Made by a program: the position numbers and the translations under genes
The notes under the pieces: generated by a model
Database searches by the model: none
Seen by the model: only the letters and a program-made list of their open reading frames with translations
What the model was told of the DNA's origin: nothing
Shown here: one piece after another, positions 807 to 12,894 of the stretch
Numbering within the stretch: position 1 is the stretch's first letter
Layout: every line of letters begins with the position of its first letter
NCBI GenBank assembly: GCA_041500405.1
Contig: JBGQMB010000025.1
Coordinates: 1 to 12,974 of the forward strand
Direction: 5' to 3'
Source: Candidatus Micrarchaeia archaeon
GTDB lineage: Archaea; Micrarchaeota; Micrarchaeia; Anstonellales; J096
DNA length: 12,974 bases

Positions 807-838
807 TTTTTAAACATTCATGTTCATTAAAAAACACA
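807..838 (-). promoter_or_regulatory. Bipartite archaeal-type promoter (TGTG element + TATA box) for the gene starting at 784
   Basis: Minus strand reads TGTGTTTTTTAATGAACATGAATG-TTTAAAAA, ending 23 nt from the ATG. The same architecture occurs at five other sites. Confidence 0.7.
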
Positions 839-859
839 TTAAAATAAGCTGTTTTCCGG

Positions 860-1159
860 CTATTTCCCGACGGCTCCCCGCCCGCCGACGCTTGCGCGGA
901 ACTCCTTATCCGAATCTATCATATAATTTACCCAGGCGTCGTGCATCCTTTTTAGGTTTACTTTCTTGAACTGCCCTGTGCCTGCCAAAACGCCTGCAAG
1001 GACTCCAATTGCCGCAAGCCCGATAACAAGCCTTTTGTTTCTCCTAGCAAAGCCGGTTCTTTCAGATTCGTCTTTTGCCTTCCTCAATATCATGCCGATG
1101 TGCGTTCCGCAATTTCTGCAATTGCCTGGCTTGAGCATAAGGGGCTTTTCAAGCGACAT
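860..1159 (-). CDS. Small (99 aa) leader-only membrane protein, paralogous to the N-terminus of the 5481-6521 ankyrin protein
   Basis: Start reassigned from 1249 to ATG 1159, 4 nt after the upstream stop (GAGTGATATCATG). MSLEKP...GMILRKAKDESERTGFARR...AAIGVLAGVLAG...KKVNLKR aligns with MPIEKP...GMVLRKAKDAIEKTGFAKR...ATIGMLAAFIAG...KDVNLKK. No ankyrin repeats follow. Confidence 0.8.
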   Translation of the reverse strand: MSLEKPLMLKPGNCRNCGTHIGMILRKAKDESERTGFARRNKRLVIGLAAIGVLAGVLAGTGQFKKVNLKRMHDAWVNYMIDSDKEFRASVGGRGAVGK

Positions 1160-1163
1160 GATA

Positions 1164-2765
1164 TCACTCTTTGGCGCCATGCTCTTTAAGGAATTTCGCG
1201 ATTTTTGTATTGTTATAATACTTGGCGTAATAAAGGGCCGTTTTGCCATCTTTATCTCTCGCGTTCACGTCCGCAGGACCCATCCCAAGCACCACCCTGG
1301 CAATCTCCAAATTGTCGCTCTGAACGGCAAAAATCAGGATAGTTGAGCCATCATTATTCTTAGCTTTCACGTCCGCGCCATGTTCAATCAGGAATTTGCA
1401 GGTTTGCATGTGTCTGTTCTCTGCGGCCCACATGAGCGCGGTCCTGCCCTCCTTGTCCTTTGCCTCTATGTCTGCGCCTTTCTCTAGCAGGAAAGCGCAG
1501 GTTTCGGTGCATCCGTTCTCTGCGGCAATCATGAGCGCGGTCATGCCGTAGTAGTCGTCCTTAGCTTCGATGTTTGCTCCTTTTTTGATTAGGAAAGCGC
1601 AAGTTTCAGTGCGGCCTGCAAATGCGGCCTCCATCAGCGCAGTCCAGCCCCAGCCGTTTTTTGCCTCTATGTCTGCGCCTTTTTTGATTAGGAAAGCGCA
1701 GGTTTGCATGTGTCTGTTCTCTGCGGCCCACATGAGCGCGGTCCTGCCGTTCTTGTCCCTTGCATCCATATCCGCGCCTTTATTAACCAGTAGCTTGCAG
1801 GTCTCTAAGTTTCCTATAGATGCAGCCTCCATCAGCGCAGTCATGCCCCAGTCATTCTTTGCCTCAATGTCTGCACCTTTCTCAAGCAAGAATTTGCAGA
1901 TGTCGGTGTATCCGTTCTCTGCGGCCCACATGAGCGCGGTCCTGCCGTCGTAGTCCTTAGCTTCGATGTTTGCGCCTTTTTCAAGCAGTAATGCACATGT
2001 TTGGGTGTGTCCTGCCAGTGCAGCACGTATGAGCGCAGTCCATCCGTAGTAATTATCCTTTGCCTCAATGTCTGCGCCTTTTTTGATTAGGAATGCGCAG
2101 GTTTGAGTGTGTCCGTTATATGCGGCCGACATGAGCGCAGTCCATCCGTAGTTGTCCTTTACCTCGATGTCCGCGCCCTTTTCAAGCAATAAAGCGCAGG
2201 TTTCGGTGCATCCATTCTCTGCGGCCCACCTCAGCGCAGTCTCGCCGAAGATATTCGTTGCCTTGACGTTTGCGCCTTTTTCAATCAGTAATTCGCAGGT
2301 TTGGGCATTTCCCTTCTGTGCGGCCGACATGAGCGCAGTCCATCCGTAGTTGTCCTTTGCATCAATGAGCTCCTTTACGTTTCCGCCCGCCTTTGCATAT
2401 TCTTGTATTATCAGGATGCAGATTTGGGTATTTCCATTCCGTGCGGCCTCCATGAGCGCCGTCCGGCCCAATGTGTTCTTTACCTTGATGTCTGCGCGTC
2501 TTTCAGGCAGTAATTCGCAGGTTTGGGCATTTCCCTTCTGTGCGGCAACAATGGGCGCGGATGCGCTTTCCTGCGAGTAGGCCATCATGTTGGGAGAAAC
2601 AACCGCCAGGCTTGCCGCCATTACGGTTATCGCGGTTTTTGAGCGGAAGAACTTGCACGCCCTTTCAATGCCGTCTTTTGCCTTCCTCAGAACCATGCTT
2701 ATAGGCTTTGCGCTGTCCCTTACGCCGGTTGCAACCCTTGTTCCAAACGTCTTTTCAATTGGCAT
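1164..2765 (-). CDS. Ankyrin-repeat protein (about 13 full + 1 partial repeats) with N-terminal signal/membrane segment
   Basis: Repeated 33-34 aa G-x-TALM-x-AA-xx-G-xxx-TC-xx-L-xx-KGA[DN] units, ending FLKEHGAKE. Start 2765 (MPIEK) is preferred by homology with the gene starting at 6521; ATG 2774 is an alternative. Confidence 0.95.
   Translation of the reverse strand: MPIEKTFGTRVATGVRDSAKPISMVLRKAKDGIERACKFFRSKTAITVMAASLAVVSPNMMAYSQESASAPIVAAQKGNAQTCELLPERRADIKVKNTLGRTALMEAARNGNTQICILIIQEYAKAGGNVKELIDAKDNYGWTALMSAAQKGNAQTCELLIEKGANVKATNIFGETALRWAAENGCTETCALLLEKGADIEVKDNYGWTALMSAAYNGHTQTCAFLIKKGADIEAKDNYYGWTALIRAALAGHTQTCALLLEKGANIEAKDYDGRTALMWAAENGYTDICKFLLEKGADIEAKNDWGMTALMEAASIGNLETCKLLVNKGADMDARDKNGRTALMWAAENRHMQTCAFLIKKGADIEAKNGWGWTALMEAAFAGRTETCAFLIKKGANIEAKDDYYGMTALMIAAENGCTETCAFLLEKGADIEAKDKEGRTALMWAAENRHMQTCKFLIEHGADVKAKNNDGSTILIFAVQSDNLEIARVVLGMGPADVNARDKDGKTALYYAKYYNNTKIAKFLKEHGAKE
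1398..1748. repeat. 51-bp exact direct repeat (1398-1448 and 1698-1748) inside the ankyrin gene
   Basis: gcaggtttgcatgtgtctgttctctgcggcccacatgagcgcggtcctgcc occurs twice, offset by 300 bp, and encodes GRTALMWAAENRHMQTC. Confidence 0.9.
2121..2546. repeat. Two exact direct repeat pairs inside the ankyrin gene: 2121-2160/2319-2358 (40 bp) and 2286-2324/2508-2546 (39 bp)
   Basis: Read directly from the sequence. The pairs encode KDNYGWTALMSAA and AAQKGNAQTCELL respectively. Confidence 0.88.
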
Positions 2766-2770
2766 TTTTA

Positions 2771-4759
2771 TCATTCCTTGGCGCCCTTGGATTTCAGGAA
2801 TTTAATAATGCTCCGTTTGCCGGCCAGGCTGAGCGCCGTATGGCCATCATTATCCTCCGCATTCACATCAGCATATCCTTTAACAAGAAGCCTGACAATC
2901 TCCTCCGCGTCTTCACCGCAGGCATACATAAGCGCCGTAATGCCGCTGCTGTCCCTTACATTTATGTTGACTTTATTGGAAAAAAGGCGGTCTACTGGGC
3001 TCTTTGATGTATCGATTGTTCCAAGAAGGAGTTTTGCTACTCTTAGCCCCCCATTACGAATTGCATGCATCAGCGCCGTTTTGCCATCCTTGTCTATCGC
3101 ATTAATATCCGCGCCCTTTTCTATGAAACGTTTGGCATCGGCTACGCGGTCTTTGGAAGCGGCGATCATCAGCACAGTAATGCCATCTTTATCTTTTGCA
3201 TTCACATCAGCGCCTTTGTCAATAAGCATATCCACGATATTATCATAATTGCCATAATTTGCGCCCGGAGTGGGCATTACATATTCCACAATCCTATACA
3301 TGCACGCATACATCAGCACCGTAATACCATCATTGTCCATTGCGCGCACGTCTGCATTTCTGTCAAGAAGAATCTTGGCAATGCCGGCCTGGCCGTCATG
3401 GCAGGCATACATCAGCGCAGTCTTCAAGTCCTTGTTTTTGGCGTTTACATAAGTGGCTTTCCTGTCAATAAGCAGCCTGGCGATGCTCTCGTGCCGTTTA
3501 GCAATGGCCAGCATCAGCGCCGTCATGCCTTTCTTGTCTTTTGCGTTGAGGTCGGCGCCCTTGTCAATGATGAGTTTGACAAGTTCTGCATCTCCTCTCT
3601 TCACGGCCCATAGGAGCGGCGTCACGCCATTAGTGTCCTTCACATTAACATTGGCGCCTTTTTCAATAAGGAACTTGACCAGTCTGTCGTTATCATTTTT
3701 CATCGCCAGCGAAAGCGGAGTCCAACCGTCCTTGTCCTTCACGTTCACCTTAGCGCCATATTTACCTACTAGTACTTTTGAAAGAATATCCTGTTCTTTA
3801 TTCTTAGAATGTTCAACTGCGTACATGAGCGCCGTCCTGCCGTGATTGTCCCTTAGATTCGCCTTAAGCTGCATGTCAGACCATATCATTGTCAAAGCAG
3901 ATAGATTGTTCCCACTTATCAGGGCATTCATCAGCGTCGTGCGCTTGTCGTCGCCATATTTTATGTTTACATCTGCGCCTTTCTGTATAAGCATACGTAT
4001 AGCATCAAAATTCTCTCCGCATACGGCATAGTCGAGCGCCGTCCTGCCATCCTTGTCTCTTGCATTGAGGTTAGCCCCTTTATCAGCAATCAGCTTGACA
4101 AGGGAAGAATCGCCTTTCTTTACGGCCCACATGAGCGGCGTCCTGCCTTTGCTGGATTTTATATTCACTTTCGCGCCTGCATCAAGAAGGAGCCTGACGA
4201 TTTCAACATTTTTTTGGCCAGCAGCAAACAACAGCGCCGTCCTGCCGCTGCTGTCTTTCTCATTAACATTGGCATGGTTGCCGATAAGCATCCTGACAAT
4301 GTCTGCATTCTCGTGAATTACGGCATACGTCAGCGCCGTAAATCCTTCTTTGTCCTTCGCATTCACATCAGCTCCTTTGTATATCAGGAGCTTGGCTTGA
4401 TCATCCTGTTCACACCAGATCGCACAGCTCAGCGGCGTCCAGCTGTTTCCTTTCCCAGCATCTATGTTTGCGCCGCCTTCTATTAGAGACCTGGTCCTTC
4501 CCAGGTCGCTTTTTCCTACGCTTTCAAAAAGCAGGCTATCCTGCGTGCTGAGCTTTTGCGAAGACGAGTCCTTGTGAGAACAGGACATTATGCCCAAAGC
4601 ACCCGCGGCAAGACCCGCCGCCAGCATGGTTATCGCGGTTCTTGAGCGGAAAAACCTGCGCGTGCTTTCCATGCCTTCTTTTGCCCTTCTGAAAATTTCA
4701 ACGAGCCTTCTGCGGCCGCCACTATCTTCCCTTGGAACATCCAGGCTTTTCAGCGCCAT
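2771..4759 (-). CDS. Ankyrin-repeat protein (about 16 repeats plus N-cap), predicted lipoprotein
   Basis: Repeated G-x-T[AP]L...GA[DN]VN[AV]KD units. The leader MALKSL...FRRAKEG...STRRFFRS is followed by hydrophobic TAITMLAAGLAAGALG and lipobox-like IMS-C. Ends FLKSKGAKE. Confidence 0.95.
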   Translation of the reverse strand: MALKSLDVPREDSGGRRRLVEIFRRAKEGMESTRRFFRSRTAITMLAAGLAAGALGIMSCSHKDSSSQKLSTQDSLLFESVGKSDLGRTRSLIEGGANIDAGKGNSWTPLSCAIWCEQDDQAKLLIYKGADVNAKDKEGFTALTYAVIHENADIVRMLIGNHANVNEKDSSGRTALLFAAGQKNVEIVRLLLDAGAKVNIKSSKGRTPLMWAVKKGDSSLVKLIADKGANLNARDKDGRTALDYAVCGENFDAIRMLIQKGADVNIKYGDDKRTTLMNALISGNNLSALTMIWSDMQLKANLRDNHGRTALMYAVEHSKNKEQDILSKVLVGKYGAKVNVKDKDGWTPLSLAMKNDNDRLVKFLIEKGANVNVKDTNGVTPLLWAVKRGDAELVKLIIDKGADLNAKDKKGMTALMLAIAKRHESIARLLIDRKATYVNAKNKDLKTALMYACHDGQAGIAKILLDRNADVRAMDNDGITVLMYACMYRIVEYVMPTPGANYGNYDNIVDMLIDKGADVNAKDKDGITVLMIAASKDRVADAKRFIEKGADINAIDKDGKTALMHAIRNGGLRVAKLLLGTIDTSKSPVDRLFSNKVNINVRDSSGITALMYACGEDAEEIVRLLVKGYADVNAEDNDGHTALSLAGKRSIIKFLKSKGAKE

Positions 4760-4781
4760 GCCATATTTCCTGCAGGAACAG

Positions 4782-4814
4782 TTTTTAAACCATTATTACT
4801 CATTTAAAAACACA
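4782..4814 (-). promoter_or_regulatory. Bipartite promoter for the 4759-2765-1159 operon
   Basis: Minus strand reads TGTGTTTTTAAATGAGTAATAATGG-TTTAAAAA, ending 23 nt from ATG 4759. Confidence 0.7.
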
Positions 4815-4833
4815 AAAAGCTGTCTATGGCGTT

Positions 4834-5409
4834 TCACTCCTTTGCGCCTGCGGCTTTCAGGAGCTTGACGATGCCGGTTTTTCCGTAAATCATCTCGCCC
4901 AATTCGGCATAATGCAGGACGGCCCTGCCGTTCCTGTCCTTTGCGTTCACGTCCGCGCCGTTGTCAATAAGCAGCCTTGCGATTTCGATGTTGCCTGCCT
5001 TCGCCGCGTCCATGAGCGGGGTTATGCCAGTTGCCTCGTCCCTTGCATTGGGGTCTGCGCCCTTTTCTAGCAGCGATTCAACGTCCGCACAGGTGCCGTT
5101 TTGGGCATGGAAGATGATGTCGTCCGCATATTTTTCCGCATTCGTAGCCTTATAGTTTAGTGGGGCTGCGCTTTTGCCTGCAACAGCGGCCTGCGCTGCA
5201 TTTGGCTTTCCCATCGGGCCCCATACAAATGCCTGCATCGGCACAACTATGCATAATCCAACAATAGCACCTGTAATTAAACCTGTTTTAGTTAGCTTAT
5301 TCCATTCCTGATCATCTGTTATGTTCTTCGCAGCCCTGAATATCATGTTCTTTGGCTTTGTCCTTCCGCCGTTGAGGCTTTTTTTCTGCTTTTCAGATAG
5401 CATAACCAT
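4834..5409 (-). CDS. Short membrane-anchored ankyrin-repeat protein (cap + 2 repeats)
   Basis: LLEKGADPNARD...GITPLMDAAKAGNIEIARLLIDNGADVNAKD. Hydrophobic segment GLITGAIVGLCIVVPMQAFVW. Ends LLKAAGAKE. ATG 5403 fits the promoter spacing better than 5409. Confidence 0.92.
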   Translation of the reverse strand: MVMLSEKQKKSLNGGRTKPKNMIFRAAKNITDDQEWNKLTKTGLITGAIVGLCIVVPMQAFVWGPMGKPNAAQAAVAGKSAAPLNYKATNAEKYADDIIFHAQNGTCADVESLLEKGADPNARDEATGITPLMDAAKAGNIEIARLLIDNGADVNAKDRNGRAVLHYAELGEMIYGKTGIVKLLKAAGAKE

Positions 5410-5426
5410 ATCTTAGTCCCCAACAC

Positions 5427-5458
5427 CTTTTAAACATATCATCTCGCCAATAACCACA
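5427..5458 (-). promoter_or_regulatory. Bipartite promoter for the 4834-5409 gene
   Basis: Minus strand reads TGTGGTTATTGGCGAGATGATATG-TTTAAAAG. TGTG begins exactly 24 nt before the TATA box. Confidence 0.6.
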
Positions 5459-5480
5459 GTGGCTCCGTCTGTGCGGCATC

Positions 5481-6521
5481 TCATTCCTTTGCGCCGAGAG
5501 ACTCAAGGTACTCGATTGCAGCAGGAAGCCCAAACCTTTTGGCATAGCCAAGCGCAGTCATGCCTTCTTTGTCCCTTTTGCTTATGTAATTTTTAACGTC
5601 TCCGCCGGCTTTTTCGTACTTGGACACTAGAAACTCGCAGAATTCTGCAAGCCCAAGTTGTGCCGCATACATGAGCACAGTCATGCCGTATTTGTCCGCT
5701 GCCTCGATGTATCTTTTCAGGTTTCCGCCAGCCTTGGCATATGCGGAGATGAGCGCCTTGTATTCGCTGGTATCGCGGCTGCAAGCCGCATGCATGAGCG
5801 CAGTCTTTCCGTCCTTGTCCGCTGCCTCGATGAGCCCCTTAACATTCCCGCCCTTCTTCGCGTATCTTTCAATGAACAGCGCCCACGTCTTTTCATGGTG
5901 ACCCAGCACAGCTGCCCACATGAGCACAGTCAGGCCGTCATTGTCCCTTGCATTGATTTTTGCCCTTTTTTCAATCAAGAACTTGCAGACGTCATAGCTC
6001 CCGACCCATGCGGCCCTCATGAGCGCAGTCTCGCCATAACCGCCGGTTGCAGTAGCATTCACGTCCGCGCCCTTGCCTACCAGCAGCTTGACAGCTTCGA
6101 CGCTTCCGCCGGCTGCGGCGCATATGAGCGCTGTCCAGCCGTGCTCGTTCCTTGCGTTCGGGTCCGCGCCCTGCCTCAGGAGATTTTCAACGCTCGCGAC
6201 TGTCACGTAGTCCGAGACTGCATCCAAAAGCGCCTTGTTCATGCGCTGCTGTTTTTCGGAGATTTTGGATTTCTTTTCAACGGCGCTTATTTGTTTGGCG
6301 TTTGCCTTTTTCAGATTGACATCCTTTAGGTTTTCGGCGCCTGCAATGAACGCGGCAAGCATGCCTATTGTCGCAACCCTGGCGACGGCATGCCAGCTTC
6401 TTTTTGCAAAACCAGTTTTCTCGATTGCATCTTTTGCCTTCCTCAGAACCATGCCGACAGGCTTTCCGCTGCTGTTTTCGCCGGTTGCAATCTTTGACCC
6501 AAACGGTTTTTCGATTGGCAT
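5481..6521 (-). CDS. Ankyrin-repeat protein (cap + about 6 repeats, three of an extended type) with N-terminal signal/membrane segment
   Basis: GWTALICAA, GETALMRAA, GLTVLMWAA, GKTALMHAA, GMTVLMYAA and GMTALGYA motifs. Leader MPIEKP...LRKAKD. Ends YLESLGAKE. Confidence 0.95.
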   Translation of the reverse strand: MPIEKPFGSKIATGENSSGKPVGMVLRKAKDAIEKTGFAKRSWHAVARVATIGMLAAFIAGAENLKDVNLKKANAKQISAVEKKSKISEKQQRMNKALLDAVSDYVTVASVENLLRQGADPNARNEHGWTALICAAAGGSVEAVKLLVGKGADVNATATGGYGETALMRAAWVGSYDVCKFLIEKRAKINARDNDGLTVLMWAAVLGHHEKTWALFIERYAKKGGNVKGLIEAADKDGKTALMHAACSRDTSEYKALISAYAKAGGNLKRYIEAADKYGMTVLMYAAQLGLAEFCEFLVSKYEKAGGDVKNYISKRDKEGMTALGYAKRFGLPAAIEYLESLGAKE

Positions 6522-6525
6522 ATTA

Positions 6526-7617
6526 TCAGTTCTCTTGGCAGCATAACTTCAAAATCATTTCTCTCTGTTCATTACTGTACTTATTGGAAAACTTAACTTC
6601 CTCTTTTTTCAGAAAATAGTATGTCTTATCGTATCCTTTACTCAATTCAAGTGCAGTCGCGCCAAAATTACCCTCTACGTCTATATATTCTCCAATATTT
6701 CCGCCATACCTGGCAAGTTTTTCAAGCAGCAATTTGCAGATTTCTAAGTTATTTTGCTGAGCGGCATTCATTAATGCAGTCCGGCCACCATCTCCCCAAT
6801 CGTAACTAGTCTTTGCCTCAATGAACTTCCTAACATTTCCGCCATACTTAGCAAGCTTTTCAAGCAGGAATGCGCAGACTTCCGTGTCGCCGTAGGGGGC
6901 AGGCCGCTCGGCCATGCAACCAGGCATCGCTGCGGCATGCATAAGAGCATTCTCGCCATATTTATCCTTTGCTTCAATATATTTTTTTACATTTCCACCT
7001 TTTTCAGCAACTTTTTCAATCAGAACTCTACAGCAATTAATATCTCCTAGAGAATGCATGAGTACAGTGCGTCCAGTTGTATCCCTAGCATACATGTTTG
7101 CGCCATGCTCAATCAAGAATTCACAGGCTTTGGCATCACAAGACTCCATGGCAAGCATAAGCGCGGTGCTACCGTCGCTAGTCTTTGCATCAACCTTGGC
7201 GCCAAGCTTGATAAGGAGACTGCCAACGACGAGGTTTCCGTCCCATCCAATTACACTCTCCATCAATGGAGTCCAGCCCCGCTTGTTCCTGCAGTTCACA
7301 TCTACGCCATACAAAACAATTCCCCTGATTTTTTTCTTATCTCTTTTTTCAACAGCGTCAAAAAGCATGCTATCTACAGTGCTGATCGTGGCAACAGCGG
7401 GTGCTGGTGCTTCCCAGTGCGGTGTATTTTCCTTATGTGAACAGGATATCAGATTCGGCGAAACCACGGCCAAGCTGGTCGCAAGCATCGTCATTGCGGT
7501 TTTTGAGCGCAGGAACTTGCAAGTCCTTTCAATGCCGTCCTTTGCCCTTATGAAACAACCAAGGATACGTCTGTTACCATTTCTGCTTTCTTTTGACACC
7601 AGGCTTTTCAGTGCCAT
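6526..7617 (-). CDS. Ankyrin-repeat protein (cap + about 6 repeats), predicted lipoprotein
   Basis: GWTPLMES, GSTALMLA, GRTVLMHS, GENALMHAA and GRTALMNAA motifs. The leader MALKSL...FIRAKDG is followed by a hydrophobic segment and lipobox-like LIS-C. Confidence 0.93.
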   Translation of the reverse strand: MALKSLVSKESRNGNRRILGCFIRAKDGIERTCKFLRSKTAMTMLATSLAVVSPNLISCSHKENTPHWEAPAPAVATISTVDSMLFDAVEKRDKKKIRGIVLYGVDVNCRNKRGWTPLMESVIGWDGNLVVGSLLIKLGAKVDAKTSDGSTALMLAMESCDAKACEFLIEHGANMYARDTTGRTVLMHSLGDINCCRVLIEKVAEKGGNVKKYIEAKDKYGENALMHAAAMPGCMAERPAPYGDTEVCAFLLEKLAKYGGNVRKFIEAKTSYDWGDGGRTALMNAAQQNNLEICKLLLEKLARYGGNIGEYIDVEGNFGATALELSKGYDKTYYFLKKEEVKFSNKYSNEQREMILKLCCQEN

Positions 7618-7638
7618 ATATCCTTTTCACATAGTTCT

Positions 7639-7670
7639 CTTTTTAACATGCACGCTCGTTTATAAACACA
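7639..7670 (-). promoter_or_regulatory. Bipartite promoter for the 7617-6521 operon
   Basis: Minus strand reads TGTGTTTATAAACGAGCGTGCATG-TTAAAAAG, ending 22 nt from ATG 7617. Confidence 0.62.
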
Positions 7671-7688
7671 CCAACCCGCCTGCCGTCT

Positions 7689-7703
7689 GACAACCTTTAA
7701 ATA
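7689..7703 (+). promoter_or_regulatory. Canonical BRE/TATA promoter of the adenosine-specific kinase operon
   Basis: GACAACC-TTTAAATA, ending 23 nt before ATG 7726. Confidence 0.6.
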
Positions 7704-7725
7704 CTCATCCGGAACATCAATACGC

Positions 7726-8562: not shown

Positions 8563-8961
8563 TCAGCCTGCTTCTTTGTTGCGGTGCGCCCTTAGGAATT
8601 CAGCAGTGCCATCGCGGCCTCCTGCTGTTGCAAGCATGAGCGCAGTCATGTCGTAGTTGTCAATTGCATTGACGTCAGCTTTGTGTTCAAAAAGAAGTTT
8701 GCACATTCCAGTATATCCAGTGTATGCGGCAAGCATGAGCGGGGTTCTTCCGTCGCTGTTCCTTATATTCACGTCCGCCCCGGCATCCAGCAGCCTTTTG
8801 GCGTTTTCAATTTTTCCCTTCTTGGCAAACTCAAGCAGCCTCATGTTCAGGCTCTCCAGCCTTTCTTTATCGGGCATTATGCCCTCAGTTTTCGGCTTGT
8901 TGGCAGCAATGCCGGGCTTTACTGTTGCTTTCCTGCATTTGGGCAGATTTCTTTCCTGCAT
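8563..8961 (-). CDS. Short ankyrin-repeat protein (cap + 2 repeats) with no hydrophobic signal
   Basis: LLDAGADVNIRNSDGRTPLMLAAYTG...ADVNAIDNYDMTALMLA. ATG 8961 is preferred over TTG 8985 because a TTTTAAAT box overlapping the thpR stop ends about 24 nt upstream of it. Confidence 0.9.
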   Translation of the reverse strand: MQERNLPKCRKATVKPGIAANKPKTEGIMPDKERLESLNMRLLEFAKKGKIENAKRLLDAGADVNIRNSDGRTPLMLAAYTGYTGMCKLLFEHKADVNAIDNYDMTALMLATAGGRDGTAEFLRAHRNKEAG

Positions 8962-8986
8962 ATGCCGTTTATGTGCAGGCAACAAT

Positions 8987-9629: not shown

Positions 9630-11405
9630 ATGTTCAATGAAAGATTGATGCCCGTTTCAAAACTAAATCCAAGAATAAAGAGATGCTTATCCACACTGCA
9701 GATTTTGGACAGCGCGCCGCTCACCGAAGACACAGTGAAGGCCGCCTATAGGACATTGGCAATGAGATATCATCCTGACAAAAATCCCGGCAACACGGAT
9801 ATCGGGGCAAAATTCAGGGAAGCGACTGATGCATACCATGAAATGAAGAGATTATTTGAAAGCTCAGGCCAAGAAACAATCCAACTTGAAACAGAACCCA
9901 ACATAAAAAGCAGGGACTTGCTAAAAAAAGGATTTTCCTCTGCAGTGGAAAGGCTGTTGAGGGAAAAGGATGAAGCGGATAAAGGGAGGAAAGACGCATC
10001 CATCTATGAAATGCCAAGGGAATATGTGCAAAGGCCATTTTCAGATACGGTGCGTTTGCATATGCAGAAGATAGAAAGGATATTCCTTCTCGAACAGCCT
10101 GCATTGGACAAAAACCAGTCTGTTGACGAAATAGTAATATCCATATTCGGCGTAGAACCGGAAAGCCCTGTTGTTGCGCAAGCGCGCAAAGTTTTTGATG
10201 AAAGCCAAAAATCGAAAAAGGACTTCGTAGATGCGCTATCCCTGGCATACTGGATAACTGAGATGTTCGGGGGCGCGTCACCGCAAAAAGCGCTGGAAAG
10301 AACGGCAAAATTTCTTGAATGCGGCGATAAAGCCCAAATGAAAATGGCAGCGGGCTGCGCATTGGCCTCTCTGGATGCGGACTTGCATGTGATGATGGAA
10401 CCGAAAAAGGAAGGAAAGAGATATTCCATGGCATTTGATGAGCTGTACGGCCTGATTTTCCGCTCAATAAAAACCGACGGAGAAATGGACCAATACGGTT
10501 TATTGATGAAAGAGGCGCAAAAATGCGCCTTGCGTTCCCAAAGACCCCTGCTGTTCAGCGGCAAAAACCACGTCTATGCCGCCAAAATACTGACGAAAGC
10601 GTGCAGGAACAGGAGCATAAGCGAGGCAAGGCTGTTTCTTGACAAGGCCGTTTCCCTTTGCGAAAAGTTATTCTACGATCCTTTTGCAGATAACAGCCTT
10701 GACATGCTGGATGAAAAGATGGCCGCCATGGAAGCCGAAAGGCTGAATTTAGGGCGGACCAGGGGATTCACAGAGCAAGAATTCTTTGACTTGGTGAATC
10801 TTGTCGAAGCGATAAGAAACGACGGCAGCCTGAGTTTCAAGATGAGGCTTCTCACATTCTCCAAATTTATCAATTCATTAAGCGAAACCATACCGAAGGA
10901 TAAAATGTTATATGCAAATACCTTTGTGGATTCCGTCTCCGAAGCCGCCAACGGATATGTTGACGGAAATACGGCGCATATCGTAAATGAATGGAGCAGG
11001 GCATTCAAGAGCCATTTTGGCTCATTCATGCAAAATCCGGAGAGTTTTTGGAGGGCCATGAATGCGATAGGGTGCCTGAGAAAAAACATCGGTAAAAAGA
11101 ATCGCGGCTTCAGGAAACCTTTTTACGTTACCGTGGAGGCTGCCGCATATTGCGGGTCAAGGATAGTGGGCAAAAGCCCGGAAACAAGAAAGATTGAGGA
11201 ACTGCAAAGACTGTGCGACAATTACAGGAACAGCGAATACTTCGTAACCCAAACGAAAAAAGGCAGGCAGACAATCCCGGCAGAAAGCCTCACACCCAAA
11301 GAAAAAAGGATTTACATGGGATTACAAGATATACAGAGGGGCTCTTCAAGAAAAATCAAGACAGAACAAATGAAGGAAATCCTGGATGTTTTCTACGACG
11401 AATGA
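9630..11405 (+). CDS. J-domain (class C DnaJ-like) protein with a large uncharacterised C-terminal region
   Basis: N-terminal VKAAYRTLAMRYHPDKNPG...KFREATDAY with an intact HPD motif. It has no G/F-rich region or CxxCxGxG repeats, so it is not canonical DnaJ. Confidence 0.9.
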   Translation: MFNERLMPVSKLNPRIKRCLSTLQILDSAPLTEDTVKAAYRTLAMRYHPDKNPGNTDIGAKFREATDAYHEMKRLFESSGQETIQLETEPNIKSRDLLKKGFSSAVERLLREKDEADKGRKDASIYEMPREYVQRPFSDTVRLHMQKIERIFLLEQPALDKNQSVDEIVISIFGVEPESPVVAQARKVFDESQKSKKDFVDALSLAYWITEMFGGASPQKALERTAKFLECGDKAQMKMAAGCALASLDADLHVMMEPKKEGKRYSMAFDELYGLIFRSIKTDGEMDQYGLLMKEAQKCALRSQRPLLFSGKNHVYAAKILTKACRNRSISEARLFLDKAVSLCEKLFYDPFADNSLDMLDEKMAAMEAERLNLGRTRGFTEQEFFDLVNLVEAIRNDGSLSFKMRLLTFSKFINSLSETIPKDKMLYANTFVDSVSEAANGYVDGNTAHIVNEWSRAFKSHFGSFMQNPESFWRAMNAIGCLRKNIGKKNRGFRKPFYVTVEAAAYCGSRIVGKSPETRKIEELQRLCDNYRNSEYFVTQTKKGRQTIPAESLTPKEKRIYMGLQDIQRGSSRKIKTEQMKEILDVFYDE

Positions 11406-11409
11406 ATGG

Positions 11410-12870
11410 TCATTTCATTGAGGAAACCAGGTTTTCCAGCCTTTTTATCCCACCCTGCAGCATCAGTGCCAGTTTGGAGTCCAAATCCGCGGTATCCAGC
11501 CCCAATTGTGCCAGCATGCCCTTGGCCCTGGACAGAAGCAAAACCTGTTTTATGTCCTCCGGAGGGGATGTCACAATCAATCCCGTGTACGTTGCATGGT
11601 CTTCAAGCATTGTGGTCAGGCCAACGACAAATTGGCTTTCCCCCTTCGTTAAGGGAACAAGCGCTGTTGTGCCGGTGGTTTGGATATGCCCCAGCAGGTA
11701 TCTGCTTATTAGCTCCTTCAGCGGTCCGGATACGTCCTCACGGGCCAATTTCACGCGGGAAACGACTTCATCAATGTGCTCCAGGGCCTTTGTTGCAATC
11801 TCGTGCTCTTTCACAACATTATGCAGAATCCTTTTTTCCAGTGAAGCAAAATACCTCTTGCTTCTTGCGCGCAGCTCAATCACATTTGTCCTGTTCTCTC
11901 TGTCAAGCTCGACAAACCTGAAAGGCGCGCTCTTTGTGCGGTTCACAAAAGGTTCATAGCAAAGGTAAAACAGCCTGCTTTGCATCTCATTAAGCGTTAT
12001 CCTATCTCCTGGATTGTGTTTCTTGATCTCTGATATCATCTCCGCAATCTCGGGTATCTGGGCTTTGAACACACGGTCGCTGATAATGCTCTGGTGCGCA
12101 GGCTCGCAGCCTGCGGCAGATGACCCGAACCATTTTCTTAGGCGGGGATTGGATGAGACAAGCCTTGAATATCTGACCCATTTGTTGTTGTGATGAGCCG
12201 ATATGTACCTGCTTATCTGCTCAAAATAAAATGAATTGCTCTCGTTTGTCCTTTCAACCAAGGCATTGACGCTTTCCCCCGAGTATCTTTTCGAGATAGA
12301 AGCCAGAATGTCCCTGTGCATTTTTGAGTCATGGTTTGGCTCTTTCTGCAAAAGGCCGACGAACTGCTCCATTTCGGCACTGCGCAGCAGTCTGCCCGCA
12401 ATGTCAAGTATCGATTCCAGGAGGGCCGCCTTTATCTCAGAATGGTTTAGCCTGTCTGCCCCTTCGCCAAGCGTTTTCTGTATTTGGCTGGATTCCAAAT
12501 CCATGTAATGTAGGTACAAAACCGCAAATGGAACCACAGTGGGTGCAAGATTCATGTTTACAAAAATCATGTCGCCATATTTGTATCCTATGCCCGAACC
12601 GTCGCACTGGCTGTCCAGGAATGGTTTCGAACAGAAAACGTACTTTAGGTTCTCTCCGGCTATCTCTACGCTGAATTTATGGTTTTTTCTGTAATAATTT
12701 TCAATGTCGCTTAGCGGATCAAGACATAGTGTTTGGCATAGCGATAATGTCGGACCTCTGGTACCAGAGCCATCAGGGGCTATGATATCATTTGCCCTAA
12801 ATGCCCTTTTAGTATCAGGGCTAGGTTTTCCATTTGCATTTTTTGGCATGTCTCCTTTTTCAGTAGCCAT
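11410..12870 (-). CDS. Hypothetical protein (486 aa)
   Basis: Long ORF convergent with the J-domain gene (4 nt gap). ATG 12870 is preferred over TTG 12891 because the TATA box ends 25 nt upstream of it. No family recognised. Confidence 0.85.
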   Translation of the reverse strand: MATEKGDMPKNANGKPSPDTKRAFRANDIIAPDGSGTRGPTLSLCQTLCLDPLSDIENYYRKNHKFSVEIAGENLKYVFCSKPFLDSQCDGSGIGYKYGDMIFVNMNLAPTVVPFAVLYLHYMDLESSQIQKTLGEGADRLNHSEIKAALLESILDIAGRLLRSAEMEQFVGLLQKEPNHDSKMHRDILASISKRYSGESVNALVERTNESNSFYFEQISRYISAHHNNKWVRYSRLVSSNPRLRKWFGSSAAGCEPAHQSIISDRVFKAQIPEIAEMISEIKKHNPGDRITLNEMQSRLFYLCYEPFVNRTKSAPFRFVELDRENRTNVIELRARSKRYFASLEKRILHNVVKEHEIATKALEHIDEVVSRVKLAREDVSGPLKELISRYLLGHIQTTGTTALVPLTKGESQFVVGLTTMLEDHATYTGLIVTSPPEDIKQVLLLSRAKGMLAQLGLDTADLDSKLALMLQGGIKRLENLVSSMK

Positions 12871-12894
12871 ATACACTACCCTTGTACACAACGC

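Follow-up and report, generated by a model that had tools for sequence, protein, structure and literature searches.

In both bacteria and eukaryotes, recombination in the 5' regions of genes for surface proteins is well known to produce chimeric paralogues. Among tandem paralogues, unequal crossover gives rise to the Lepore and anti-Lepore fusions, such as those of delta and beta globin and the red/green opsin hybrids. Conserved motifs in extended signal-peptide N-regions are known from type V secreted proteins (ESPR) and from Gram-positive surface proteins (YSIRK-G/S), and expanded ankyrin families with membrane anchors occur in host-associated microbes, as in the ank genes of Wolbachia. Here we report on a stretch of 12,974 nucleotides (nt), referred to as the window, from a Candidatus Micrarchaeia archaeon (assembly GCA_041500405.1, contig JBGQMB010000025.1). 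The window carries a tandem array of seven genes with a common type of leader, and one of them, the ankyrin gene g2765 (1164-2765, minus strand), joins the front of a B-type leader to the back of an A-type leader at a conserved RKAKD motif. This leader is a true recombinant of old standing.

As in the Lepore and anti-Lepore fusions, the 5' part of one paralogue stands in frame with the 3' part of a neighbour, with intact family members flanking the hybrid; moreover, Lepore is a deletion product and anti-Lepore a duplication product, which mirrors the two crossover readings of g2765 weighed below. However, the Lepore parents have long, highly similar tracts, whereas the A and B leaders have only 6-9 identical bases in common and the parents cannot be identified among the flanking genes. 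With ESPR and YSIRK proteins the array has in common a long N-terminal extension and a short motif before a hydrophobic segment, in a family of differing passenger domains; unlike them, it belongs to an archaeon, and its proteins match no such Pfam family at E <= 0.01. The Wolbachia ank genes are likewise lineage-specific tandem ankyrin genes with N-terminal membrane segments and variable repeat number in a reduced genome (the archaeal genome is reduced and probably host-dependent), but they belong to a different phylum and have a different leader. In Helicobacter pylori, according to a published report, gene conversion accounts for chimeric bab genes whose 5' breakpoints lie ~60-240 bp into the coding region, and the paralogous surface-protein genes babA, babB and babC swap 5' ends in such a way that the hybrid keeps one body under the other's front, as in g2765 (PMC4552749). 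The H. pylori events are described there as recent, recurrent and polymorphic among isolates, and as conversion between distant loci (PMC4552749), whereas g2765 represents a single old event, with 18-22% divergence, in the tandem array of an uncultured archaeon; no polymorphism was observed, and phase-variation repeats play no part.

Mosaic identity of the g2765 leader

The seven array genes lie head to tail on the minus strand in the order g7617, g6521, g5409, g4759, g2765, g1159 and g817. In all seven leaders, about 25-30 variable, net-basic residues at the N-terminus (9-12 Lys and Arg versus 3-6 Asp and Glu) are followed by a motif [RK]xAK[DEN]; behind it, a few basic residues lead into ~19 hydrophobic ones. 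In g2765 the B-type pre-motif module comprises codons 1-31 (2673-2765), including the RKAKD codons (AGG AAG GCA AAA GAC, 2673-2687), and is closest to the pre-motif module of g6521 (6429-6521). The A-type post-motif module, which consists of the basic stretch and the hydrophobic segment (2572-2672, from BLASTN and codon alignment), has its nearest relatives in the A-type genes g7617 (7436-7536) and, equally close, g4759 (4575-4675), the upstream neighbour of the chimera.

When the leaders were anchored at the motif, g2765 matched g6521 at 76/93 nt and 21/31 amino acids before it and at 28/90 nt and 6/30 amino acids after it. The reverse was seen with g7617 (35/81 nt and 6/27 amino acids before, 69/90 nt and 22/30 amino acids after) and with g4759 (34/84 nt before, 65/90 nt after). 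In a gapped codon alignment the counts before and after the motif were 76/93 and 23/69 for g6521, 37/81 and 56/72 for g7617, and 41/84 and 55/72 for g4759, so that the back half of the chimera shows no difference in its closeness to the flanking g4759 and to g7617. The contrast between the two sides of the motif is highly significant for g6521 (Fisher, p = 6e-10) and g7617 (p = 6e-5). The pre-motif part of g2765 also matches a B gene from another genome of the same genus (G001) at 62/93 nt and its downstream neighbour g1159 at 54/90 nt, and g6521 and g1159 have homologous back halves (38/69 nt, with the strings TGFA.R, IG.LA and K.VNLK in common).

Self-comparison by BLASTN aligned 2665-2768 with 6421-6524 in g6521 (79.8% over 104 nt, E 2e-22) and 2572-2682 with 7436-7546 in g7617 (76.6% over 111 nt, E 6e-21), and the two alignments overlap solely on the motif; the post-motif part of g2765 also aligns with 4575-4695 in g4759 (71.9%). 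A 24-mer at 2675-2698 recurs identically at 6431-6454, with a third copy carrying three mismatches at 1072-1095 in g1159, and none of 200 shuffles contained any match. The first-pass annotation of this DNA had described the leader of g2765 as matching g6521 up to the motif and g7617 after it. That description was reproduced, as were the 24-nt identity and the gene order and spacing of the two- and three-gene operons in the coordinates of the open reading frames (ORFs), and the peptides quoted in its support are present in the translations; the start of the gene beginning with MSLEK (g1159), which had been put at 1156, is at 1159.

Maximum chi-square analysis of the triplet g2765, g6521 and g7617 placed the breakpoint between aligned nt 90 and 93 (2673-2676, minus strand), within the motif's Asp codon: B-diagnostic bases run up to the third position of Lys30, and A-diagnostic ones start at the third position of Asp31. 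The 85 informative sites are split 32:4 before and 6:43 after this point (chi-square 49.3), a value reached in 0 of 5000 permutations; with four other choices of parents the break fell between nt 83 and 95, again with 0 of 5000 permutations for each. The two sides of the motif also have conflicting histories. Quartets were used for this comparison, since 7-taxon trees from 93 and 117 sites are underpowered. After the motif, the grouping of g2765 with A against g6521 with g1159 was best by 16.9-18.1 log-likelihood (lnL) units, the alternatives being rejected by the approximately unbiased (AU) test (p = 0.002-0.003), and before the motif the quartet favoured g2765 with g6521 by 2.7-3.5 lnL units (likelihood ratio test of the internal branch, p = 0.008-0.019). 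In the full trees, the pre-motif A pair excludes g2765 at 99% and the post-motif g2765 joins the A pair at 99%. The front of g2765 thus nests with g6521 in the B group and its back in the A group, and therefore no single tree fits both, an argument that carries more weight than any of the individual tests. A B front with a B back is also found in G001 and in two proteins resembling g1159 (P0006 and P0007), so the combination of a B front with an A back is the derived one.

Several results weigh against a recombinant leader. The pre-motif quartet gave an AU p of just 0.11, and when the G001 gene was included no pre-motif topology stood out. The split of g2765 and g6521 has a bootstrap value of only 62% in the full tree of this segment, and AU tests of constrained 7-taxon trees were non-significant on both sides of the motif (p = 0.09 and 0.10; 93 and 117 sites, low power). 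The separate pre- and post-motif trees called for in the first-pass annotation conflict as quartets, the constrained 7-taxon tests alone being non-significant. Uneven rates, convergence or mis-assembly of paralogues or strains could be invoked instead of recombination: the segments are short (93 and ~100 nt), the A/B alignments are near saturation, and the contig comes from a metagenome-assembled genome. We regard this as barely credible, because the front nests in one group and the back in the other, while g1159, P0006 and P0007 have back halves homologous to that of g6521, and because the halves of the chimera match no other copy in the genome identically and contigs from two samples cross the junction.

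As regards mis-assembly, the motif family is confined to this contig within the genome bin (G000), and the halves of the chimera are 18% and 22% diverged from their nearest copies, neither being identical to a "parent"; therefore g2765 cannot be a join of present paralogues. The support for the junction comes from independently assembled contigs, not from raw reads. A Logan contig of 2756 nt from run X1, possibly the source sample, covers 2517-5272 with one difference, and a contig of 300 nt from a different sample (run X5) covers 2420-2719 with none; no contig of run X6 spans the junction, from which no inference is drawn. The junction is not an assembly artefact, and the artefact that the first-pass annotation had named as a possible source of the chimera is not borne out. 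Taken with the maximum chi-square result and the conflicting quartets, these contigs agree with its proposal of a recombinant leader joined at the motif, and it is highly probable that recombination of some kind produced it. The divergence of the halves from their nearest copies is about that between orthologues of G000 and G001. No date is claimed for the chimera because its front half lacks third-position bias: the pre-motif tails of g2765 and g6521 (2673-2765 and 6429-6521) differ at 6, 5 and 6 sites in codon positions 1, 2 and 3, with 10 replacement versus 4 silent codons. Outside MPIEK and the motif, the tail residues thus appear to evolve almost without constraint. The membrane segments of g2765 and g7617 differ at 6, 0 and 11 sites in the three codon positions.

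Crossover, conversion and the order of the genes

Three candidate mechanisms were compared, all of which need a join at the motif. We tentatively favour deletion-fusion, a single exchange at the motif that links a B gene to the A gene following it and contracts the array; we infer crossover rather than conversion, and deletion rather than duplication. The starting point would be an ancestral tandem array of units resembling [A][B][C], with B and A genes in the same orientation. A single crossover, or slippage, at the few bases of microhomology in the motif would have fused the 5' end of a B gene (31 codons, of the g6521 lineage) to the 3' part of an A gene (the next ~33 codons, of the g7617/g4759 lineage). 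In its simplest form this would be a deletion from the B gene of one unit to the A gene of the next, giving contraction and not expansion, and the native, tightly coupled A-to-B junctions would remain on either side of the fusion. The join would fall at the motif as the sole island of nucleotide similarity between A and B leaders and as the boundary between two modules, the N-terminal tail and the membrane segment, at which a hybrid protein could stay functional. The product is an ankyrin protein whose basic N-terminal tail is of B type and whose hydrophobic segment is of A type but lacks the lipobox-like Cys.

The spacing of the genes is consistent with such an event. Both junctions flanking the chimera, of 5 nt between g4759 and g2765 and of 4 nt between g2765 and the MSLEK gene, consist of a TGA stop, 4-5 nt and an ATG, like the junction of g7617 and g6521 (4 nt), whereas A genes otherwise have spacers of 75-108 nt and ~65 nt of homologous upstream sequence (4569-4825 aligned with 7430-7681). 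In its last 50 amino acids, g2765 has 26 residues in common with g4759 (A) and 16 with g6521 (B).

Other observations count against deletion-fusion. The C-terminal likeness extends to g5409, a gene of C type (25/50), A and B are not separated by their ankyrin bodies, and bodies and C-termini name no parent. In addition, deletion-fusion presupposes an ancestor of three units, to which nothing points directly, and the syntenic site in G001 is without the array, so that no ancestral state can be read from it. Moreover, the B-like tract is bounded, with ~95-105 nt from about the stop/start junction to the motif, and a short conversion tract would look just the same. Within the array, no two leaders are more alike than the front halves of g2765 and g6521 (82% versus 72-78% among A types), which fits a late conversion from the still-existing g6521.

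A short-tract conversion, in which the first ~95-105 nt of an A-type ankyrin gene between g4759 and g1159 were overwritten by the 5' end of g6521, ranks only slightly behind deletion-fusion. The tract would extend from a conserved GAKE-stop island, or from the start codon, to the motif; alternatively, an A gene would have supplied a new ~100-nt membrane segment to a gene with a B leader by overwriting the old one. In favour of conversion, the tract resembling g6521 is short and has a limit at either end (2665-2768), and the lineage of its donor is extant in g6521, the partner in the most similar leader pair (76/93). Third-position differences amount to 6 in 31 codons before the motif (against g6521) versus 11 in 26 after it (against g7617), which hints at a younger relationship for the front half, and conversion is also the process to which the H. 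pylori report ascribes the chimeric bab genes (PMC4552749). The upstream region is harder to reconcile with conversion: A genes have homologous upstream sequence and long spacers, but the chimera starts 5 nt behind the stop of g4759, so the tract must also have deleted the spacer, or the tight, A-to-B-like junction would be coincidental. Furthermore, only 6-9 nt of cross-type homology would be available to hold the tract on its right side.

The first-pass annotation had proposed an unequal crossover at the motif between gene B of one [A][B] copy and gene A of another, by which the array would expand with the motif as a hinge. This we consider unlikely, although it is one of the three live mechanisms; its simplest form is contradicted. 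The order of A, B/A chimera and B, and the tight A-to-B-type junctions on both sides of the chimera, are what one would expect of a single crossover of B with A; the junction coincides exactly with the motif, and the two halves are similarly diverged from the genes of the other operon (18% and 22%). However, a deletion yields the same gene order, so that expansion is not demonstrated by it. Past the motif, the A-type similarity of g2765 extends for about 100 nt, to the end of the leader at ~2572, just as far as the A genes resemble each other; as the bodies do not discriminate, descent of the whole 3' part from an A gene is presumptive. The simplest form, an exchange within one operon, predicts that the front half should match the flanking g1159, and it matches g6521 at 76/93 but g1159 at only 54/90 (p = 0.002). 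Rapid divergence of g1159 is a poor escape from this difficulty, as g1159 differs from the B gene of G001 at 31/90 sites and the others at 31/93 and 32/93. Together with P0006 and P0007, g1159 belongs to a separate, old, ankyrin-less subfamily. In the version between two copies, the similarity of g1159 to g6521 should equal that of the back half to g7617, and 55/90 versus 56/72 were seen (p = 0.03). This version also predicts further duplicated genes, none of which are seen, though the contig ends in g817; the extra copies must then have been lost. As for a hinge, the locus shows a single event, and no other junction types appeared in searches of genomes and proteins. More complex histories hold the probability that remains beyond the mechanisms ranked here.

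The motif and the modules that it joins

The 24-nt identity described above is within one type, between two B-type front halves. Across types, the identity at the motif is limited to GGCAAA (6 nt, g7617) or GGCAAAAGA (9 nt, g4759) in common with B genes. This cross-type tract is microhomology and not an ordinary substrate of homologous recombination; the ancestral sequences may have been more alike. Since the motif is the only stretch over which A and B leaders can be aligned, any join guided by homology would be expected in it; since it also separates two modules, selection would retain hybrids joined at this point. From one event these two causes are inseparable. The Ala codon is GCA in all six A/B-type motifs, versus a genome-wide share of 0.28, from which nothing is inferred as the sequences are non-independent. 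The general role as a recombination hinge that had been suggested for the motif is not demonstrated, with one event and no other junction combination in any search. A wider reading, in which the RKAKD island is a reusable joint that reassorts tails, anchors and ectodomains as a cassette system for surface variation in Micrarchaeota, seems to us very unlikely. The combinations of leader and body found are B on ankyrin (g6521), B on a 30-residue tail (g1159), C on ankyrin (g5409), C on non-ankyrin bodies (g817 and the protein P0009) and the B front with A back of g2765.

By the positive-inside rule, the basic flank of a membrane segment stays cytoplasmic. The leaders would accordingly place their N-terminal tail in the cytoplasm and the ankyrin part outside, and the B- and C-type members look like uncleaved membrane anchors with the N-terminus inside. 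The lipobox pattern is [LVI][ASTVI][GAS]C closing a hydrophobic segment. The A-type hydrophobic segment ends in a lipobox-like manner, with LISC in g7617 (7440-7450) and IMSC in g4759 (4580-4590), each followed by SHK[ED]. In g2765 no lipobox was found, and the aligned place reads MMAY (MMAYSQE, 2585-2600), with Tyr instead of Cys. The chimera has thus lost the Cys and with it probably a lipid anchor, if any such anchor exists. A pair of Arg residues before the hydrophobic segment, resembling a twin-arginine translocation (Tat) signal, is present only in g4759 (TRRFF), with CK in g7617 and g2765. TatC (PF00902) was not found in the 86% complete genome bin by a search that was positive in 11 of 14 control genomes, and a Tat signal for g4759 was dropped on this ground.

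Relatives and genomic setting of the array

Of the 176 genomes available for the order, 11 had a match to a profile of the leader at E <= 0.01. Scores typical of the family (1e-13 to 1e-28) were confined to G000 and G001, the matches in the other nine genomes being weak and uninspected (E 2e-4 to 1e-2). Among 1.84 billion representative proteins there were nine matches at E <= 0.001, namely three genes of the window, the B gene of G001, two proteins like g817, two like g1159 and one like g5409. A profile search for longer proteins among the best 8000 candidates by common words from an index of 5.8 billion proteins gave five matches (g6521, g5409, g7617, the G001 gene and one g817-like protein). 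In these searches the leader family was thus confined to G000, G001 and a few metagenome proteins. No new combination of front and back, or of junction, was present among the family-level matches in G001 and the genomes of the order or in the two protein searches, and the other junction combinations that the first-pass annotation had suggested looking for in related genomes were accordingly not found. Residues 1-70 of g2765, when used as a query against the word index, yielded 27 candidates without any at E <= 1; so short a query cannot reach significance against 5.8 billion sequences. The genes g2765, g4759 and g1159 with these exact starts are absent from the protein collection.

Pattern scans of metagenome contigs and of genome contigs were also made. 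In the metagenome contigs, with a 4-row B-type alignment, one of 97 pattern matches was confirmed (locus L027), which was rejected as an unrelated protein merely containing MVTRKAKDG; in the genome contigs, with an alignment of g1159, P0006 and P0007, none of 99 pattern matches was confirmed. P0006 (100 amino acids) and P0007 (95 amino acids) are 48-52% identical to g1159, and the three have an invariant tail AGTGQF..K..LK.MHD.WV past the hydrophobic segment and no Pfam match. The gene g1159 is not a truncated ankyrin gene but a member of a conserved family of single-pass membrane proteins of 95-100 amino acids. Look-alikes of g1159 in the Atlas all scored <= 0.78 and gave no lead.

In G001, the syntenic neighbours adenosine kinase, orf8214 and LigT have 79-82% nt identity with those of the window. 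At the corresponding site (L029, G001:C14, 5222-7092, versus 817-7725 of the window), a g817-like gene follows adenosine kinase after 141 nt, and the six-gene block from g7617 to g1159 is absent; the B gene of G001 lies on another contig, and g817 is the only array member with a syntenic counterpart there. The array is either specific to this lineage or lost in G001. A small ankyrin gene between orf8214 and LigT (8563-8985) is also absent from G001.

The window is an entire contig (C25) of a 916-kb genome bin in 60 contigs. According to the ORF list and Pfam, a two-gene block (5481-7617, minus strand, as are all array genes) is formed by g7617 (6526-7617) with an A-type leader and g6521 (5481-6521) with a B-type leader, both with ankyrin bodies. 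Between this and the three-gene block lies g5409 (4834-5409), with a C-type leader and a short ankyrin domain. The three-gene block starts with g4759 (2771-4759; A-type leader, ankyrin body), continues with g2765, whose product has 533 amino acids from the MPIEK start, and ends with g1159 (860-1159), which has a B-type leader and encodes a membrane protein of 99 amino acids without ankyrin. Downstream, g817 (2-817) is truncated by the contig end and has a C-like leader (KRARDE motif and hydrophobic segment) on a non-ankyrin body. With the Ank/Ank_2 profiles (PF00023/PF12796), g2765 scores 365 bits (E 9e-114), where the cut-off is 21.1, and g4759, g5409, g6521 and g7617 also exceed the cut-off; g1159 and g817 have no Pfam match.

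The body of g2765 (1164-2560) contains 12-13 ankyrin repeats of ~33 amino acids, mostly exactly 33, with a mutual DNA identity of 63-77%. Public k-mer contigs fragment across these repeats, with many joints between repeats (for example 1405-2272 and 2009-1911), and the assembled repeat number may be uncertain or variable. Three codons before the MPIEK start at 2765, another ATG in the same frame (2774) overlaps the TGA stop of g4759 (ATGA, 2771-2774), which suggests translational coupling of g4759 and g2765; the start codon may be either 2774 or 2765. Four of the five ankyrin genes of the array have the GAKE-stop ending (GGCGC[CA]AA[GA]GA[AG]TGA). The exception, g7617, ends in ...LKLCCQEN-stop after a non-ankyrin tail of 25 amino acids (6526-6600), and its final bases (GCTGCCAAGAGAACTGA) resemble the family ending with two 1-nt insertions, which suggests that its 3' end is frameshifted or remodelled. 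Beyond the array, a gene at 9630-11405 (plus strand) encodes a protein of 591 amino acids, the sole recognisable part of which is an N-terminal DnaJ domain (E 1.7e-10); convergent with it is an ORF of 493 amino acids at 11410-12891 (minus strand) without Pfam match.

A literature search for Micrarchaeota or DPANN with ankyrin returned nothing on such arrays, and novelty is claimed within that search only. A 5'-end chimera in a little-studied archaeal lineage adds an example, not a principle, and the leader of g2765 is a fairly ordinary recombination scar. Its value lies, first, in seven neighbouring genes with a previously undescribed leader that has almost no relatives in very large databases and, second, in the modularity of this leader, whose tail and membrane segment have been recombined at least once. 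If further combinations are found in more genomes of the genus, the locus would offer a tractable system in which to follow how surface proteins diversify in DPANN archaea.

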